A DNA stretch of 64,000 nt, from positions 6,339-70,338 of the forward strand of contig JAIBAG010000013.1 in NCBI GenBank assembly GCA_019695305.1. The letters run 5' to 3'. Origin of the DNA: a bacterium. Lineage in GTDB: Bacteria; UBA10199; JAIBAG01. The notes under the pieces were generated by a model that worked only from the letters and a program-made list of their open reading frames with translations, did not search any database and was not told the DNA's origin. How positions within the stretch are numbered: the stretch's first letter is position 1; each line of letters starts with the position of its first letter. This document shows positions 2,152-61,755 of this stretch, piece by piece. A program made the position numbers and the translations under genes.

Positions 2152-2307
2152 CTAGATCTTATCCAGAGTGACTGAGGGATTGGCCCGATGACGTCACAGC
2201 AACCGCTTCCTCAAAATTAGGAAGGCCTGGTGCTAATTCCAACCCTGTACGGGTTAAGATAAGAAGAGCTGTTTGATAACCTCTTCTTAGCGAAGAGGTT
2301 TTTTTTT
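2152..2307 (+). promoter_or_regulatory. SAM-I (S-box) riboswitch: aptamer at about 2152-2266 plus a terminator/antiterminator expression platform.
   Basis: The sequence reads aucuuAUCCAGAGUGACUGAGGGAUUGGCCCGAUGACGUCACAGCAACC...GGUGCUAAUUCCAACCC...GAUAAGAAG. This contains the S-box hallmarks: P1 CUUAUC/GAUAAG, GAGGGA...GGCCCGAUGA (kink-turn/pseudoknot), GCAACC and GGUGCUAAUUCC. The 3' P1 strand AAGAAGAG can alternatively pair with CTCTTCTT of the downstream terminator. Confidence 0.85.
2280..2307 (+). terminator. Intrinsic terminator of the S-box expression platform (CCTCTTC tta gc GAAGAGG + T9)
   Basis: GC-rich hairpin followed by TTTTTTTTT, immediately before the ATG at 2308. Confidence 0.8.
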
Positions 2308-5653: not shown

Positions 5654-5807
5654 AAAGCTTTAGGCATGTTCTTTTTTATTTCAAGACACACTTACGACTG
5701 GGACGACCCAGTCGACGCTCCGCTGTTGCCAATTGGAGCTATTTATCCCGATTGTTCCAATTGACAACAGAGGGTCTTAAAATAAAAAAGAACACACCTA
5801 AAGCTTT
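5654..5807. repeat. Nested inverted-repeat element. The outer arms are ~32 bp (AAAGCTTTAGGCATGTTCTTTTTTATTTCAAG vs rc AAAGCTTTAGGTGTGTTCTTTTTTATTTTAAG). They flank a ~90-bp core with inner palindromes (CTGGGacgaCCCAG; GTTGCCAATTGG...CCAATTGaCAAC).
   Basis: Read directly from the sequence. It occupies the whole cysM-like/JAMM intergenic region. Confidence 0.6.
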
Positions 5808-7772: not shown

Positions 7773-7865
7773 AGTAACCCCCTCCCGTCCTCCCCCTTAA
7801 TTTAAGTGGGAGGGGCTAAGAAAGTCCTCCTCCCTTAAATTAAGGGAGGAGACAGAGGTGGGTTA
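7773..7865. repeat. MITE-like palindromic repeat element, copy A (second copy at 48934-49025). Termini are GAGTAACC...GGGTTAC. There are two internal CCCCCTTAAnTTAAGGGGG-type palindromes.
   Basis: It shares ~80% identity over ~90 bp with 48934-49025. It lies between the cysH start and the cysC stop. The cysC TAA stop codon is within the terminal GGGTTAC. Confidence 0.8.
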
Positions 7866-8462
7866 CACAATCTTATTCTTTTTCAGCATTTCAATTACGG
7901 CCTTTGCACACTCCTCAATACTCAACTGCGCTGTTTCCAAATTAAGTTCCGGTTTTAACGGTTCTTCGTAAGGAGACGAAATGCCGGTAAAATCTTTAAT
8001 CTCTCCCTTGCGTGCTTTTTGGTAAAGGCCTTTAGGGTCTCGTTTTTCACATTCTTCGATGGGTGTATTTACAAAAATTTCAAAAAAATGACCTTGCGGA
8101 ATAATGGCCCGCACATCATCGCGGTTTTTTCTAAAAGGCGAGATGAGCGAAACGAGAGTAATCACATTGGCATCACAAAAAAGTTTGGCTACTTCGCCCA
8201 CGCGACGTATATTTTCGGATCTGCTTTTATCATCAAAACTCAAATCTTTATTAAGCCCATGGCGCAAATTATCACCATCTATTACGTAGGCGTGAAAACC
8301 TTGGGTTATAAGAGCTTTTTCTACACTTGATGCAATGGTGGATTTGCCAGAGCCCGATAAACCTGTAAACCAAAGGACGGCTCCTTTTTGTTTTAAACTT
8401 TTAGAGCGCTCTTCAGCATTTACATGGCCCTGATGCCAAACGATATTGGTGGACTTAGACAT
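7863..8462 (-). CDS. cysC: Adenylyl-sulfate (APS) kinase
   Basis: The sequence reads MSKSTNIVWHQGHV...GAVLWFTGLSGSGKSTIA (P-loop) ...DGDNLRHGLNKDL. I moved the start to the internal Met (ATG rc at 8460-8462), because the ORF-track start at 8588 would overlap cinA. Confidence 0.85.
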   Translation of the reverse strand: MSKSTNIVWHQGHVNAEERSKSLKQKGAVLWFTGLSGSGKSTIASSVEKALITQGFHAYVIDGDNLRHGLNKDLSFDDKSRSENIRRVGEVAKLFCDANVITLVSLISPFRKNRDDVRAIIPQGHFFEIFVNTPIEECEKRDPKGLYQKARKGEIKDFTGISSPYEEPLKPELNLETAQLSIEECAKAVIEMLKKNKIV

Positions 8463-8523
8463 TGGTCTTCTTTCTAATTCTTTCGTATTGAGAGTGTCAA
8501 ACACATTTGTTACAAGTGTTTTT

Positions 8524-9777
8524 ATGCAAGCTGAAATTATCACAGTAGGTGATGAAATTGTTTCCGGTAATATAGTAGATACTAACAAGGCCTATTTGTC
8601 CGATAAGCTATGGGCTGGTGGAATCAAAGTAGTATGGCATACCTCGGTGCGGGATGACGCGGCCGATATTAAGGCGGCTTTATTGCTTGCTAATCAGCGT
8701 GCTGATATTGTTTTAGTTTCTGGTGGGTTGGGGCCTACAGCTGATGATTTTACCTTAGAAATAGCCGCTAAAACTTTTCGTAAAAAAATGGTGAGGCATC
8801 AGCCTACCTTAAACCGTTTAGAAACCCTCATGAAAAAGCTGGGGCGAACACTGCACGAAAATAATAAGAAACAAGCAGATGTTCCTGAAGGCGCTGATGT
8901 TTTTGACAATAAATGGGGTACGGCGCCGGGTATTGGTATTACCTTTAAAAAGAAACGATATTATTTTTTACCGGGCGTACCACGTGAAATGAAGCAGCTT
9001 TTTGAAGATTCTGTTTTCGCGGAAATTATTCAAAATAATCCCGATAAAAAAATCTTTGTGAGTAAATTCCTCAAATGTTTTGGCACCAGTGAGGCCGATT
9101 TAGATTTGGCTCTTAAAGAACTCTATTCGGGAGTAACCGAAATTAACAATGTGCGTGTGGGCTTTAGAGCGCAGTTTCCCGAAACCACCATTAAACTTTC
9201 GGCCTGGGACAAAACAGAAGAAAATGCCGTTCAGGCCTTAGCGGCAGTTGAAGATCAAGTTCGTCAAAAAATAGGGGAGGCTATTTACGGTGAAGGTGAG
9301 GATACGCTTGAAAAAGTGGTAGGTGAACTTTTGAATAAAAGTAAAAAAACTTTAGCCCTGGCCGAATCGTGCACGGGTGGGCTTATTGCCAGCCGCGTTA
9401 CCAATGTGCCCGGATCAAGCGCTTATTTTTTAGGTGGTGCAGTAAGTTATAGTAATGAATCTAAAGTAAAACTTTTAGGTGTGAGCGAGGCCACACTTAA
9501 AACCCATGGCGCGGTAAGCAGCCAGTGTGCCATTGAAATGGCTCAAGGCATTCGTCGCCAATTAAAAAGTGATTATGGTATTGCGGTAACCGGAATTGCT
9601 GGGCCTAGTGGCGGCTCTGTTGCTAAACCTGTGGGTACGGTTTATGTGGCACTTGCTAGCCCCAACGGAACCAAAGAAAAACTGTTTAATTTTCCGCGTA
9701 ACCGCGACATGTTTAAGCTTTTAGTGAGCTCCATCGCCTTGAATTGGTTGAGAAAGGAGCTTATCGTGGTTCGCTGA
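8524..9777 (+). CDS. cinA: CinA-family protein (competence/damage-inducible protein A; NMN deamidase PncC domain)
   Basis: It has the MoCF-binding N-domain (MQAEIITVGDEIVSGNIVDTN) and a C-terminal CinA domain (LALAESCTGGLIA...YFLGG). The start was chosen at ATG 8524. Confidence 0.8.
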   Translation: MQAEIITVGDEIVSGNIVDTNKAYLSDKLWAGGIKVVWHTSVRDDAADIKAALLLANQRADIVLVSGGLGPTADDFTLEIAAKTFRKKMVRHQPTLNRLETLMKKLGRTLHENNKKQADVPEGADVFDNKWGTAPGIGITFKKKRYYFLPGVPREMKQLFEDSVFAEIIQNNPDKKIFVSKFLKCFGTSEADLDLALKELYSGVTEINNVRVGFRAQFPETTIKLSAWDKTEENAVQALAAVEDQVRQKIGEAIYGEGEDTLEKVVGELLNKSKKTLALAESCTGGLIASRVTNVPGSSAYFLGGAVSYSNESKVKLLGVSEATLKTHGAVSSQCAIEMAQGIRRQLKSDYGIAVTGIAGPSGGSVAKPVGTVYVALASPNGTKEKLFNFPRNRDMFKLLVSSIALNWLRKELIVVR

Positions 9778-47787: not shown

Positions 47788-48936
47788 ATGTTTCTCTATA
47801 TTCATTTTCCCTATTGTCTGTACAAGTGCGTTTATTGCGATTTTAATTCGTATGCAAGTAAAGCTCATAATATTCCATTTAAGGAATATAACGAGACGCT
47901 TAAAAAAGATTTTTTACACAAGCTGCCCTTTTACCCAAAGCAACCACTTAAAACTATTTTTTTTGGAGGAGGAACGCCTTCGTTAATGGAGCCTTCCGGC
48001 GTGCGTGATCTTCTTGATTTTATAAGAGGGCATGTAGGGTTTGAATCGGATATTGAAATTACCCTGGAAGCAAATCCTAAAACGATTGCACTCGATAAGC
48101 TAAAAGCTTTTAGAGATGCTGGTATTAATCGCATCTCTCTGGGTGTTCAAAATTTAAACGAAAAGTATTTGCAAAGCTTTGGCCGTATTCATTCCGCCCA
48201 AGATGCCTTAACGGCTATGGATGATATTATGGAGGCCGGTTTTAAAAATTGGAGCGTAGATCTTATTTTTGGTTTTCCCGGCGAAACTTTAGATGAGTGG
48301 ACAAAAACCCTGGAGAAAATTCTTACTTATTCCATGCCGCATCTTTCGGCCTATGCCTTTACGGTGGAAGAAGAAGCCCCCTACGGTAAAATGGTGAGAG
48401 AAGGGCGTGCTGTAAAGCCCAATCAGGATCTTCAGGACGATTTGTTTTGGCTAACCCGTAAAAAGATGCAGAAAGCCGGTTTTATGGCTTACGAAGTATC
48501 TAATTTTGCAAAGCCAGGCTACCAGTCGCGCCATAATATAAACTACTGGCGTTATGGCGCCTTTATAGGCATTGGTGCGGGGGCTTATGGGCAATACTTT
48601 ACGGGGGAGGAAGCTTGTTTTGCCAAGCGTTTGTTTACCGTTAAAACTCCCGATTTATATCAAAAAGCAGTGGGTTGCGGAGATGCTTTTTATACAGAAG
48701 AAAAGATATCTAAAAAAACAGCCATGTTTGAGTATCTGATGATGGGTTTGCGTTTGGAAGATGGGGTTAAGGCAGACGATTTTGAAGAGAAATTTGGGGT
48801 GCCACTGTTGGATGTTTATGGAAAAGCTGTTGATGAAGCGCGGAGGAGAGGGTTGATAACGACGGATGGTTTTTGTTTAACACGGGAGGGGATTGGGTTA
48901 CTTAATACGGTGTTGCTTTTGTTCCAGGGAGAGTAA
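47788..48936 (+). CDS. hemW: Radical SAM heme chaperone HemW (HemN-like, oxygen-independent coproporphyrinogen oxidase family)
   Basis: It has the YIHFPYCLYKCVYCDF radical-SAM motif and a HemN_C-like tail. The TAA stop lies inside the repeat terminus GAGTAACC. Confidence 0.85.
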   Translation: MFLYIHFPYCLYKCVYCDFNSYASKAHNIPFKEYNETLKKDFLHKLPFYPKQPLKTIFFGGGTPSLMEPSGVRDLLDFIRGHVGFESDIEITLEANPKTIALDKLKAFRDAGINRISLGVQNLNEKYLQSFGRIHSAQDALTAMDDIMEAGFKNWSVDLIFGFPGETLDEWTKTLEKILTYSMPHLSAYAFTVEEEAPYGKMVREGRAVKPNQDLQDDLFWLTRKKMQKAGFMAYEVSNFAKPGYQSRHNINYWRYGAFIGIGAGAYGQYFTGEEACFAKRLFTVKTPDLYQKAVGCGDAFYTEEKISKKTAMFEYLMMGLRLEDGVKADDFEEKFGVPLLDVYGKAVDEARRRGLITTDGFCLTREGIGLLNTVLLLFQGE

Positions 48937-49025
48937 CCCCCTCCAACTCCCCCTTAACTTAAGGGGGAGAGAAAAGAAAGCTCCCTCCCTTAGACTAAGG
49001 GAGGGTTGGGGTGGGTTACTCTGCA
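48934..49025. repeat. MITE-like palindromic repeat element, copy B (see 7773-7865)
   Basis: gagtaaccccctccaactcccccttaacttaagggggagagaaaagaaagctccctcccttagactaagggagggttggggtgggttactc. Confidence 0.8.
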
Positions 49026-54141: not shown

Positions 54142-54828
54142 ATGAAGGTTGATAAACTTAGTCTTACCAGTTCGCAGCTTTCGCTTAACCGGCCCATTAC
54201 GCCGGTAAGTGGTGGACATGCGGCTGAAGCTTCCAAATCTTTGGGTGAAGCGCCTCCGGTTCAATTGTCGCTTTCCGAAATTGGTGATTTAGCGTCTCTC
54301 TTTGCTGCCACCGGTTTGGTGGGGCGTCTTAAAAAACGTCTTAATTATTTAAAAAAGAAAAAGTGTAATGTGGTTCCGGCTCAGGGAACGGTAGCTTGTA
54401 TTGACGATACCGATACGGTTTTTTTAGGTGTAGAATTTTTGGAAAAATATCAAAACGAAGAAGAAACCTTAGCTGGCGTACTAGCGCATGAGTGGGGGCA
54501 TTCGTGTGCGCTAAAACCCAACAACGAAGATTTGCAGAAAATGAATTGGAACGAAATTTTTGATTTACGCCGTGCGCACGAAACCTTGGCCGACGAAATT
54601 TCGGGACGCTTGTTGTTTATGATGGGTTATACTACCGAAGGGATTAAAAAGTTTTTGCTTAAAGGTAAAGAAACACACAATTTAAAATACCATCCGCCCG
54701 AAATGCGCGCTAAAATTATTGAATACGGTTTTGAAGCCGAAAAAAACAAAGGCCATCTGGCGCGTGAACTATTTAAAGATTCCGTTTACGAAAACGAATA
54801 TAAATCCATTTTGCTTGATATCTCCTAG
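54142..54828 (+). CDS. Hypothetical protein with an HExxH motif (HEWGH), a putative zinc metallopeptidase
   Basis: 228 aa. ...LAGVLAHEWGHSCAL... is the only recognisable signature. Confidence 0.4.
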   Translation: MKVDKLSLTSSQLSLNRPITPVSGGHAAEASKSLGEAPPVQLSLSEIGDLASLFAATGLVGRLKKRLNYLKKKKCNVVPAQGTVACIDDTDTVFLGVEFLEKYQNEEETLAGVLAHEWGHSCALKPNNEDLQKMNWNEIFDLRRAHETLADEISGRLLFMMGYTTEGIKKFLLKGKETHNLKYHPPEMRAKIIEYGFEAEKNKGHLARELFKDSVYENEYKSILLDIS

Positions 54829-55967
54829 TGTCTTCTTTTAACGTCACCATCGAAAAAATAACCTCCGAAGGGATGGGCATGGCCCGTCACCAGGGTAAGA
54901 TTGTGTTTGTGTCTTTTGTGATGCCCGGCGAAGAGGTGCGTGTGCGTGTGGTGAGGTCTCATAAGTCGTACGATGAAGCGGAGTTGATTGATGTGATCAA
55001 ACCTTCATCGTCTCGTTTAAAAGCTCCCTGTGCTTATTATGGTGTGTGTGGTGGCTGCAATTTGCAGCATATGACGTATGAGGCGCAACTCGCTGCCAAA
55101 AAACAAATTGTAGCTGATGCTTTAACCCGTATTGCTAAACTTAATGTGTTACCAATAGCCGATGTGCTGCCGTCTCCTGTGGAGTATGGCTATCGGTCGC
55201 GGATTCAATTGCATCAGGGGGATGCGGGTGTGTGGGGTTTTCATCAAAGAAAAAGTAATGCGGTAGTTGAAATCGACAAGTGTTTGCTCGCGTCGGATGC
55301 TGTTAATAAGAAGTTACATTCTTTTCACCCCCCTTTGCAAAAGGGGGGAAGGGGGGATTTAGCCCAGGTTGATAGAAAGAAAATCCCCCTCAGTCCCCCT
55401 TTTTCAAAGGGGGAGGTAAGAAAAGAAATCCGAGAAGATGACGAAAACTTTTTTACTCAAGTTAATCAAATTCAAAATAGGAATCTTGTCGATTTAGTAA
55501 TGAGGCTAGCCCGTGAGTTAAAGCCGAATGTAGCGTTAGAACTTTATGCGGGCGCGGGGAATTTTACTTTTCCTTTATCCAAAATCTGCGAAAAAATATG
55601 GGCGGTAGAGTCGTCACGCGAGGCGGTGGCTTTTGCTCAATCAAAAAATAGCGATATAATTGAATGGCATGCGGCAGATGCCGCCTCTTTTACCAAAAAG
55701 TTTCTCACTAAAAATATAATTCCCGATTTACTCTTGGTGGATCCCCCACGAGCTGGCTTGGAAGGAGCTGTGGAGAGTATTATCAAACTTCAATCCAAAG
55801 CTATTATTTATGTATCGTGCGATCCCGCTACCTTTGCGCGTGATATTAAAAAAATGATGGATGATGGGAAATATAGTTTAGAACGCGTGTATCCTGTTGA
55901 TATGTTTTCGCAGACGGCCCATGTGGAGGTAGTAGGTTTACTACTTTGTCGCAAAGATACTTTTTGA
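54828..55967 (+). CDS. rlmD: 23S rRNA (uracil-C5)-methyltransferase RlmD/RumA family (TRAM + [4Fe-4S] + SAM MTase), carrying an in-frame low-complexity insertion
   Basis: It has the TRAM N-terminus, the Cx5CGGC cluster (CAYYGVCGGCNLQH) and a SAM-binding C-domain (LELYAGAGNFTFPL...LLVDPPRAGL). It also has a ~35-aa insertion (HPPLQKGGRGDLAQVDRKKIPLSPPFSKGEVRKE) encoded by palindromic repeat DNA. Confidence 0.8.
   Translation: MSSFNVTIEKITSEGMGMARHQGKIVFVSFVMPGEEVRVRVVRSHKSYDEAELIDVIKPSSSRLKAPCAYYGVCGGCNLQHMTYEAQLAAKKQIVADALTRIAKLNVLPIADVLPSPVEYGYRSRIQLHQGDAGVWGFHQRKSNAVVEIDKCLLASDAVNKKLHSFHPPLQKGGRGDLAQVDRKKIPLSPPFSKGEVRKEIREDDENFFTQVNQIQNRNLVDLVMRLARELKPNVALELYAGAGNFTFPLSKICEKIWAVESSREAVAFAQSKNSDIIEWHAADAASFTKKFLTKNIIPDLLLVDPPRAGLEGAVESIIKLQSKAIIYVSCDPATFARDIKKMMDDGKYSLERVYPVDMFSQTAHVEVVGLLLCRKDTF
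55321..55420. repeat. Palindromic repeat element inserted in-frame within rlmD. The palindromes are CCCCCCTTTGCAAAAGGGGGG and CCCCCTTTTTCAAAGGGGG, with an AGAAAGAAAAT spacer. It is related in organisation to the MITE-like copies at 7773 and 48934.
   Basis: Read directly from the sequence. There is no stop codon in the rlmD frame. Confidence 0.65.
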
Positions 55968-59036: not shown

Positions 59037-59281
59037 AGTATCTCCTTGAGGTTTATTGAAATGCCGCCCATATTGACGACGTGGGCCGAAAACTAAAAGG
59101 TTTTTAAATACTTTGCAAGAAGAATTACGGGGATTTTATGGGGATAGGGGGCAAGGGTTGTCTGAAATATGCGCCCTTAATGCTTTATTGGGAAAATGCC
59201 CTTGTCCCTTTGGGCCAAGGACAATTTTTTTCTAAAGTTCTAGCCGCGCCTTACAGGCACGTCTATAACTTAAGAAAAAAA

Positions 59282-59365
59282 TGCGCGAGGGGGGACTTGA
59301 ACCCCCATGCCCTTTCGAGCACTAGAACCTGAATCTAGCGTGTCTGCCAATTCCACCACCCGCGC
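59282..59365 (-). tRNA. tRNA-Leu (anticodon CAG)
   Basis: I folded it by hand. The acceptor is GCGCGGG/CTCGCGC plus discriminator A. The D-arm is present. The anticodon stem ctaga/tctag has loop ttCAGgt. There is a long variable arm. The T-arm is gggggTTCAAGTccccc. Confidence 0.85.
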
Positions 59366-61679: not shown

Positions 61680-61755
61680 TGGAGCGGGAGACGGGACTTG
61701 AACCCGCGACATCTTCGTTGGCAACGAAGTGCTCTACCAACTGAGCTACTCCCGC
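61680..61755 (-). tRNA. tRNA-Gly (anticodon GCC), CCA encoded
   Basis: Cloverleaf: acceptor GCGGGAG, D-arm gctcagttggtagagc, anticodon loop ttGCCaa, T-arm gcgggTTCAAGTcccgt, 3' tCCA. Confidence 0.9.

Follow-up and report, generated by a model that had tools for sequence, protein, structure and literature searches.

The host gene and its palindromic segment

The DNA analysed here is a 64,000-nucleotide stretch (the window) of contig JAIBAG010000013.1, positions 6,339 to 70,338 of the forward strand, from a bacterium of GTDB lineage UBA10199 (assembly GCA_019695305.1). On the + strand, at 54828..55967, it carries a gene for a short-form, 379-aa 23S rRNA m5U methyltransferase of the RumA/RlmD family, identified from Pfam, TIGR00479 and structure alignment. 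Inside this rlmD-type gene lies an 87-nt doublet of inverted palindromic units. The evidence described below supports the view that the segment is an in-frame insertion of a palindromic repeat, tolerated in the connector between two domains of the enzyme.

The encoded protein has a TRAM domain (residues 4-53) and a tRNA_U5-meth_tr domain (201-375) in Pfam, with a region between them that contains four cysteines of the Fe-S type (C68, C74, C77 and C152); the class I S-adenosylmethionine (SAM) methyltransferase domain begins at F209-x-Q-V-N. It therefore combines TRAM, a four-Cys [4Fe-4S] site and a C-terminal SAM domain with catalytic Cys and Glu. C68, C74, C77, C152, C331 and E367 are invariant in the ortholog alignment (A1), and the RlmD catalytic-domain invariants, C331, D358 and E367 among them, are intact. 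The protein passes the TIGR00479 rumA model (263.5 bits; cutoff 183.55), and it scores 264 bits with PRK13168, under the cutoff of 458 for that model. In the structural comparison with RumA (1uwv), residues 5-156 and 209-370 align to RumA 18-166 and 263-427, and the central domain of E. coli RumA (residues 167-262) has no counterpart. This short form is common to 13 orthologs of 340-395 aa. Because the counterpart of RumA 167-262 is missing and the PRK13168 score is below cutoff, U1939 is a putative target only. An identical protein, MBX7148924.1 [bacterium], comes from an unclassified metagenome-assembled genome (MAG), and the nearest non-self homolog is 41% identical.

The doublet occupies 55328..55414 (+ strand) and consists of two inverted units of about 33 nt, each a hairpin followed by a G-run-ATTT tail, with the tails facing inward across a spacer of 19-20 nt. 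The left unit (55328..55360, + strand; inverted repeat I4) is of the C6/G6/G6 type. Its hairpin CCCCCCTTTGCAAAAGGGGGG at 55328-55348 has a perfect 9-bp stem and a 3-nt loop (CCCCCCTTT-GCA-AAAGGGGGG), and is followed by AA and the tail GGGGGGATTT (55351-55360). The variable spacer AGCCCAGGTTGATAGAAAG (55361..55379, + strand) stands where full-length elements elsewhere hold a DUF559 gene of about 380 nt. The right unit (55380..55414, - strand; inverted repeat I5) is of the TC5/G5A/AG5 type and reads, on its own strand, TCCCCCTTT-GAA-AAAGGGGGA (55394-55414), CTGA and GGGGGATTTT (55380-55389). On the + strand the tail therefore comes first, as AAAATCCCCC at 55380-55389 and then TCAG (to 55393), and the hairpin (T)CCCCCTTTTTCAAAGGGGG(A) follows at 55394-55414, again with a perfect 9-bp stem and a 3-nt loop (TCCCCCTTT-TTC-AAAGGGGGA). 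It is the G-run tail carried by each hairpin (GGGGGGATTT, AAAATCCCCC), which the first-pass annotation had overlooked, that identifies the element as an inverted repeat of a ~33-nt unit. A first-pass annotation of the window had already placed the two palindromes, the core AGAAAGAAAAT (55374-55384) and the translation HPPLQKGGRGDLAQVDRKKIPLSPPFSKGEVRKE (residues 167-200 of the 379-aa open reading frame, ORF) at these positions.

Several results argue that the palindromes did not arise by chance. The motif CCCCC-N9-GGGGG occurs three times in the window against 0.04 expected, an excess of about 75-fold, and 6 of the 56 runs of five or more C or G in the window sit inside the 87 nt. The RNA of positions 55310-55435 forms a single long hairpin with a folding energy of -56.9 kcal/mol (z = -4.6), and none of 200 shuffled sequences was as stable; the DNA fold has -31.2 kcal/mol (z = -5.6). 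The stable mRNA hairpin that the first-pass annotation had raised as a question is thus predicted to form. In addition, a covariance model of the unit built from other genomes (R1, see below) matches both halves with E about 1e-17. The long hairpin is extended by 8 bp through an 8-nt inverted complement that flanks the doublet on the + strand (inverted repeat I7), TTCTTTTC at 55319-55326 and GAAAAGAA at 55420-55427. TTCTTTTC encodes the end of helix 157-166 and GAAAAGAA encodes strand 198-202, and these flanks are probably host sequence; their complementarity could be due to chance or to a preference for palindromic targets.

Evidence for insertion into an inter-domain connector

The doublet runs from the third base of codon 167 to the second base of codon 196 and encodes (H)PPLQKGGRGDLAQVDRKKIPLSPPFSKG(E), 29 codons without a stop; of the three + strand frames through the element, only that of rlmD is free of stops. 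In the protein, the encoded segment lies after the TRAM and four-Cys region and before the methyltransferase domain. Both the open frame and the position between the TRAM/Fe-S region and the SAM-methyltransferase domain agree with the first-pass annotation, and the position is borne out by the Pfam domains, the four cysteines and the start of the catalytic domain at F209. The GC content of the element is 0.54, or 11 points above the 0.43 of the rest of the gene.

Three lines of evidence lead to the insertion reading: short orthologs without the segment, a model whose only low-confidence part coincides with it, and the membership of both halves in a repeat family of which they are typical. In the alignment of short-form orthologs, 48 residues separate the near-invariant N160 from the invariant F209 in the window protein, compared with about 26 in the orthologs, all 13 of which lack about 22 of the element's residues. 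An AlphaFold2 model of the host protein has a mean predicted local distance difference test score (pLDDT) of 91 and a predicted template modelling score (pTM) of 0.88. Values of pLDDT below 50 occur solely at residues 169-191, all encoded by the element and located between helix 157-166 and strand 198-202. The insert is accordingly predicted, from the model, to form a disordered 29-residue surface loop rich in Pro, Gly and Lys. The first-pass annotation, which had proposed a tolerated MITE-like insertion into a linker (MITE, miniature inverted-repeat transposable element), is supported on this point, and no ortholog compared shares the segment. The ~35-aa segment that it wished to see aligned with orthologs does align as an insertion, but the excess is about 22 aa relative to the 13 short orthologs and the element spans 29 codons.

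Excision of the 87 nt joins CA|G into CAG and gives ...LHSFQVRKEIRED..., which is seven residues under the ortholog consensus. The difference implies an ancestral loop about 7 aa shorter or a loss of some host residues. Because the excised product is seven residues short and no empty site is available, the exact boundaries are a good inference and not proven. The effect of the insert on the gene is probably neutral, and the decorated enzyme presumably stays active. The insertion is presumably also recent.

A repeat family in many phyla

One genome per GTDB species was scanned with the pattern CCCCCTT-N5-AAGGGGG-N1-8-GGGGGWT, and this returned at least 120 loci, compared with about 4 expected by chance according to our own calculation. 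The matches listed (L001-L120 of the sampled loci) span Desulfobacterota, Nitrospirota, Beta- and Gammaproteobacteria, Ignavibacteria, Omnitrophota, Patescibacteria, Chloroflexota and Bdellovibrionales, and include isolates. They share sequence beyond the scan pattern, with the consensus CCCCCCTTTGnnAAAGGGGGG-Tn-GGGGGGGATTT. Family members can be defined by a 9-10-bp hairpin xCCCCCTTT-N3-AAAGGGGGy, in which x and y are complementary, followed after 2-5 nt by GGGGG(G)ATTT, and both units of the rlmD doublet have this form. Eleven of the listed loci also share its layout, namely a unit, a 12-44-nt spacer and an inverted unit with tails inward, 74-106 nt in total.

Covariation links three positions of the unit, which are those that precede the C-run, follow the G-run of the hairpin and precede the G-run of the tail. 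Among distinct units, 64 read C/G/G there and 45 read T/A/A, and every other combination occurs in at most 5; the two units in rlmD represent the two main types. The switch between C/G/G and T/A/A is a compensatory change that preserves the pair closing the hairpin (C-G or T-A). The covariation of the third base implies that the tail G-run is always able to replace the 3' arm of the hairpin on the C-run, which would allow an alternative hairpin.

For the covariance model R1, 80 units were taken from other genomes, with the window excluded; the model was run on the window with filters off. Its top matches there are the rlmD units, at 55380-55416 (- strand; 49.5 bits, E 8.7e-18) and 55326-55362 (+ strand; 47.0 bits, E 8.5e-17). 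Besides these and two intergenic doublets at 48933 and 7774 (see below), the only matches with E <0.1 were overlapping partial or opposite-strand matches on the same hairpins. Independent units that flank DUF559 genes score 35-54 bits with R1. The rlmD units thus fall in the middle of the distribution for cassette termini, which argues that they have not decayed. Together with the 11 doublet loci, the R1 matches also show that the palindromes are not unique to this site. A second tails-inward copy of the ATTT type was not found in the window. In Rfam, no family reached threshold; the sub-threshold matches were to generic hairpin families, mostly microRNA precursors, and lay far below gathering scores. 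No paper on the unit sequence itself was found in the searchable literature, subscription literature being outside the search.

The unit pattern was also found at no fewer than 120 loci of IMG/VR viral contigs (1.05 Mb; L201-L320). Viruses may carry a gene-less form of the repeat family. At three of the genome loci, units recur at regular spacing with conserved flanks: L111 (5212-6279, about 275 nt), L051 (595-1418, 236-559 nt) and L084 (5149-5358, 181 nt). This spacing suggests tandem cassette arrays or repeated short modules.

Other copies inside reading frames

The first-pass annotation had considered an in-frame insertion of this kind to be rare. For this repeat family, in-frame copies are not rare: 37 of 174 sampled unit matches, about a fifth, are well inside an open frame, which means here a frame of 250 aa or more and a distance of at least 40 codons to each of its ends. 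Depending on the orientation, they are translated as PP[LF]xKGGxGG[FIL] or as [IN]PPxPP[LF]xKGG, and both readings are those seen in rlmD. Several of the host genes, which come from unrelated bacteria, are confirmed by Pfam domains that flank the unit. They encode a radical-SAM/DUF2344 protein (L007 7221-7262), a CbiG-methylase (L017) with two in-frame units, at 2417-2447 and 2887-2928, both in linkers, RecJ (L054 6771-6812), RlpA (L060 676-706), an amidase (L092 5092-5123) and a TIR-AAA-TPR protein (L061 4665-4695). Most of the in-frame copies in these genes sit between domains.

Association of the units with DUF559 genes

A Pfam census of 150 unit-adjacent ORFs was headed by DUF559 (PF04480) and the very common MFS_1, with three members each. 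Y1 transposases were absent from the 25 listed families with two or more members, neither a REP-associated tyrosine transposase (RAYT; REP, repetitive extragenic palindrome) nor another transposase was seen next to units, and no alternative mobilising gene was enriched among these ORFs. With phmmer, DUF559 ORFs were located exactly between two inverted units in L077 (778-1215) and L085 (3340-3771); in L051 and L111 the DUF559 gene has variant hairpin units around it, one or two in number, that were recognised in the sequence.

The association was then approached from the gene: of 80 metagenomic loci encoding DUF559 relatives (L121-L200), 74 had usable flanks, and a unit was counted as flanking when it lay within 120 nt. 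A unit was present upstream in 56 of the 74, an inverted unit downstream in 57, and both in 46. The inner distance between paired units is bimodal, either 12-44 nt or 368-433 nt (mode 380-383), and the cassette formed by a ~110-aa DUF559 gene between inverted units is very uniform in size, at about 440 bp. Elsewhere, 'DUF559 domain-containing protein' was found to be enriched among predicted inversion targets (PMC9881135). No paper tying DUF559 to flanking repeats was found in the searchable literature, with the same restriction on subscription sources. The prediction of inversion targets just mentioned reportedly rests on flanking inverted repeats.

A profile of DUF559 matches PDB entry 3hrl (E 3.5e-25) and the domain of the homing endonuclease I-Bth0305I (3r3p; E 0.0019), and E56, D58, H62 and D71 are invariant in three aligned DUF559 proteins (alignment A3). 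From these comparisons DUF559 is assigned to the Vsr-like nucleases with a PD-(D/E)XK fold.

The rlmD insert looks like a gene-less MITE/REPIN-like derivative of a DUF559-bearing element (REPIN, a REP doublet forming a hairpin). This reading is based on the termini that bracket DUF559 elsewhere, on the bimodal spacing of units, and on the parallel to REPtrons and to pairs of MITEs and their parents. The sharing of termini with a longer gene-bearing element, which is expected of a MITE, is seen in other genomes (46 of 74 DUF559 loci, and the bimodal lengths) and not in the window. DUF559 may mobilise the units.

A small difference was noted between otherwise identical cassettes. In the right unit, downstream of DUF559, L167 differs from L182 and L183 by a 10-nt deletion (TTGATCCCCC) that lies between a pair of C-runs. 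The difference looks like slippage between repeated C-runs.

Comparison with known palindromic elements

In-frame palindromic repeats are known from the Rickettsia palindromic elements (RPEs) and from intragenic REPs of the GTAG/CGTC type (PMC3733652; PMC10969869). Intragenic REP dimers encode 20-30 aa (Di Nocera et al. 2013, PMC3733652). RPEs (Ogata et al. 2000, 2002, via PMC10969869 and PMC3733652) resemble the rlmD element in being translated in frame within housekeeping genes, in being tolerated through surface or linker positions, and in that one element occurs in many unrelated proteins. RPEs are, however, 100-150 bp long and restricted to Rickettsia, and are not known to be associated with a nuclease gene, whereas the rlmD-type family, whose 31-34-nt units have C5/G5 hairpins, is found across many phyla and on viral contigs, and has termini that bracket DUF559. 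The resemblance noted here is a functional one only.

With REPs and REPINs (PMC3733652; Bertels and Rainey, PMC3337134) the family shares short hairpin units that are often paired in inverted orientation with a spacer, the pair then folding into a long hairpin, a mostly extragenic location beside the 3' ends of genes, and a small nuclease gene between two inverted units. In contrast to REPs, the unit consensus nnCCCCCCTTTGnnAAAGGGGGGTnGGGGGGGATTTn lacks the GTAG/CGTC tag, and the flanked gene is a Vsr-like PD-(D/E)XK gene (DUF559) and not an HUH/Y1 transposase (RAYT). REPs are also lineage-specific, whereas the present unit has nearly one and the same sequence across phyla. The likeness to MITEs (Correia, ERIC, Nezha and others; PMC10969869) lies in a non-coding derivative of less than 100 bp that has the termini of a longer gene-bearing element and outnumbers its parent, and in occasional in-frame fusions. 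The differences are that 45 paired elements revealed no target-site duplication, that the parent element has no recognised transposase, and that each terminus is itself a palindrome. I-Bth0305I (PMC3239194) has the Vsr-like (EDxHD) nuclease core in common with DUF559, which likewise sits in a compact, selfish-looking cassette. I-Bth0305I is intron-encoded and has NUMOD DNA-binding repeats, whereas DUF559 is here about 110 aa in length with no extra domain and is bounded by hairpin inverted repeats. By analogy, and despite these departures, the rlmD-type element would work like both a REPIN and a MITE.

Some other kinds of element were considered and rejected. Ribosome bypass of the hairpin, as in T4 gene 60, is contradicted by the open frame, and a hop from GGA to GGA (55347 to 55412) would be out of frame and meet a stop after eight codons. 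The segment has no GTTRRRY/RYYYAAC ends as in an integron attC site, no T-run as in an intrinsic terminator, and no array as for a CRISPR repeat.

Origin of the insert and alternative explanations

The explanation that we favour, with a probability of roughly 0.8, is that the segment is a gene-less (non-autonomous) copy of a small mobile or repeated element in an rlmD-type gene, and that it has survived because of where and how it landed. An element of 87 nt would keep the reading frame of rlmD, and since that frame is the sole stop-free forward frame of the element, translation would continue. The landing site would be the variable stretch that connects the Fe-S/central region to the methyltransferase domain, in which a disordered surface loop could be tolerated. 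As for its origin, the element may be an internally deleted derivative of the DUF559 element, a proposal made because it mirrors the way in which REPs flank RAYT genes and in which MITEs share ends with their parents. Such a derivative might be spread or maintained in trans by a DUF559-type nuclease, by a route of break-and-repair or hairpin-directed processing that would leave no target-site duplication.

Several observations weigh against this explanation. There is no DUF559 gene within the window, none in the 120 listed unit-bearing viral loci, and one in only 5 of the 120 listed unit-bearing genome loci (~4%). The 45 paired elements, the window copy included, have neither a consistent target-site duplication nor a conserved target, and no transposase, homing or mobility activity of DUF559 on units is documented in the searchable literature. 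The protein has about 22 aa more than orthologs in this region and not 29, and there is no close ortholog or empty site, the best non-self homolog being 41% identical, so that boundaries and timing are inferred.

The scarcity of DUF559 genes beside units could mean that DUF559 genes home into pre-existing doublets. The doublet would then be the target of free-standing homing genes, and the units would spread by other means. The larger number of units than of DUF559 genes, the relationship of DUF559 to the Vsr-like EDxHD homing endonuclease I-Bth0305I (the 3r3p match; PMC3239194) and the very uniform inner distance of the cassette are all in keeping with this idea. In MITEs and REPINs, however, gene-less copies just as typically outnumber the parent elements, and no other gene that might mobilise the units is enriched beside them; we consider such homing unlikely, while giving it more weight than the alternatives that follow. 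Exaptation of the element is improbable; selection would in that case maintain it either as a functional linker or for an mRNA hairpin which, lying between the regions for the two enzyme halves, slows translation or alters stability. The perfection of both 9-bp stems, the family-typical scores of both units and the capacity of the whole region to form the -56.9 kcal/mol hairpin could be taken as signs of selection, as could element-encoded residues 192-197, which are modelled at intermediate confidence and lead into strand 198-202. Yet a recent insertion would account equally well for near-consensus units, disorder is predicted for residues 169-191, and the occurrence of the same element inside many unrelated proteins argues against a function specific to rlmD. 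The first-pass annotation had offered exaptation as a protein linker as one of its two readings, and this finds no support, in that the segment is present in no ortholog compared.

An artefact of assembly, with reads joined through a repeat, or a decaying gene whose frame is open by chance is very improbable. The source is a MAG, repeats are typical sites of misassembly, and one insertion in three preserves the frame by chance; but each flank encodes one half of a single RlmD-type protein, and the halves share a reading frame and are collinear with orthologs. None of the invariant catalytic and Cys residues has been lost, the AlphaFold2 model is confident on either side of the insert, and analogous in-frame copies exist in isolate genomes and in many independent assemblies. 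A native, lineage-specific linker, in which the palindromes arose in place by chance or local duplication and no mobile or repeated element took part, would fit the lack of another tails-inward ATTT-type copy in the window. This view is effectively refuted by the match of both halves to R1, derived from other genomes only, by the identical doublet architecture in 11 unrelated genomes among those listed, and by the excess of C5-N9-G5 and the elevated GC content.

The preferred explanation, that of a gene-less copy in rlmD, can be extended to the family as a whole, at odds that are somewhat against it. In that tentative extension, the units and the DUF559 gene that they bracket would make up a mobile or selfish family of many phyla that is REPtron-like, with a Vsr-like endonuclease in place of the Y1 transposase; its gene-less doublets would be common in bacteria and viruses and unusually often tolerated within proteins.

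Related doublets and other features of the window

Two intergenic doublets in the window have units related to those in rlmD. E2 (48933..49019), with termini GTAAC...GTTAC, matches R1 with 34.2 bits (48933-48970, - strand) and 24.2 bits (48982-49018, + strand), and the more degenerate E1 (7774..7866) matches with 14.4 and 13.1 bits. The first-pass annotation had ascribed the same layout to the rlmD segment and to these elements (placed at 7773 and 48934). They do match R1, more weakly, but their orientation is the opposite, with tails outward, and their tails are GGGGGTTAC instead of the GGGGGATTT of the rlmD element. The relationship is at the superfamily level only, and no GTAAC-type elements were found in the fetched loci outside the window. 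Both abut the end of a gene: ORF 47788..48936 (+ strand) has the TAA within GTAAC (48934-48936) as its stop codon, and ORF 7863..8588 has, on the minus strand, the TTA at 7863-7865 in this role. The GTAAC-type element may have taken the place of the native stop codon or provided it.

The window also contains a SAM riboswitch (RF00162, 79 bits) at 2156-2265 (+ strand) and tRNA genes at 59282-59365 and 61683-61755 (both - strand). Two further repeats do not belong to the G5/C5 family: an inverted repeat at 5654-5807 with 39-nt arms that are 87% complementary and 76 nt apart, and a palindrome with 28-nt arms (59224-59282) that ends at the boundary of the tRNA gene at 59282.

Implications

In-frame palindromic repeats have so far been treated mostly as a curiosity of Rickettsia, with a few REP cases in addition. 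The rlmD insertion is a fresh example of this known phenomenon, and the family and its association with DUF559 look new, since the searchable literature yielded a description of neither. A single short element whose sequence hardly differs across phyla recurs in an rRNA methyltransferase, RecJ, CbiG, a radical-SAM enzyme, an amidase and RlpA, and disordered inter-domain loops arise from it naturally. The element is also a recurring hazard for annotation, through spurious 'PPLxKGG' peptides and shifted gene ends. From the bracketing of DUF559 by units in most DUF559 loci examined comes a testable hypothesis on two points, the role of a large domain of unknown function and the existence of a REP-like system free of RAYTs. 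If a REPtron-like DUF559 family does exist, it would give DUF559 (PF04480) a biological role, and PP[LF]xKGGxGG[FIL] would be its recognisable footprint in proteins.

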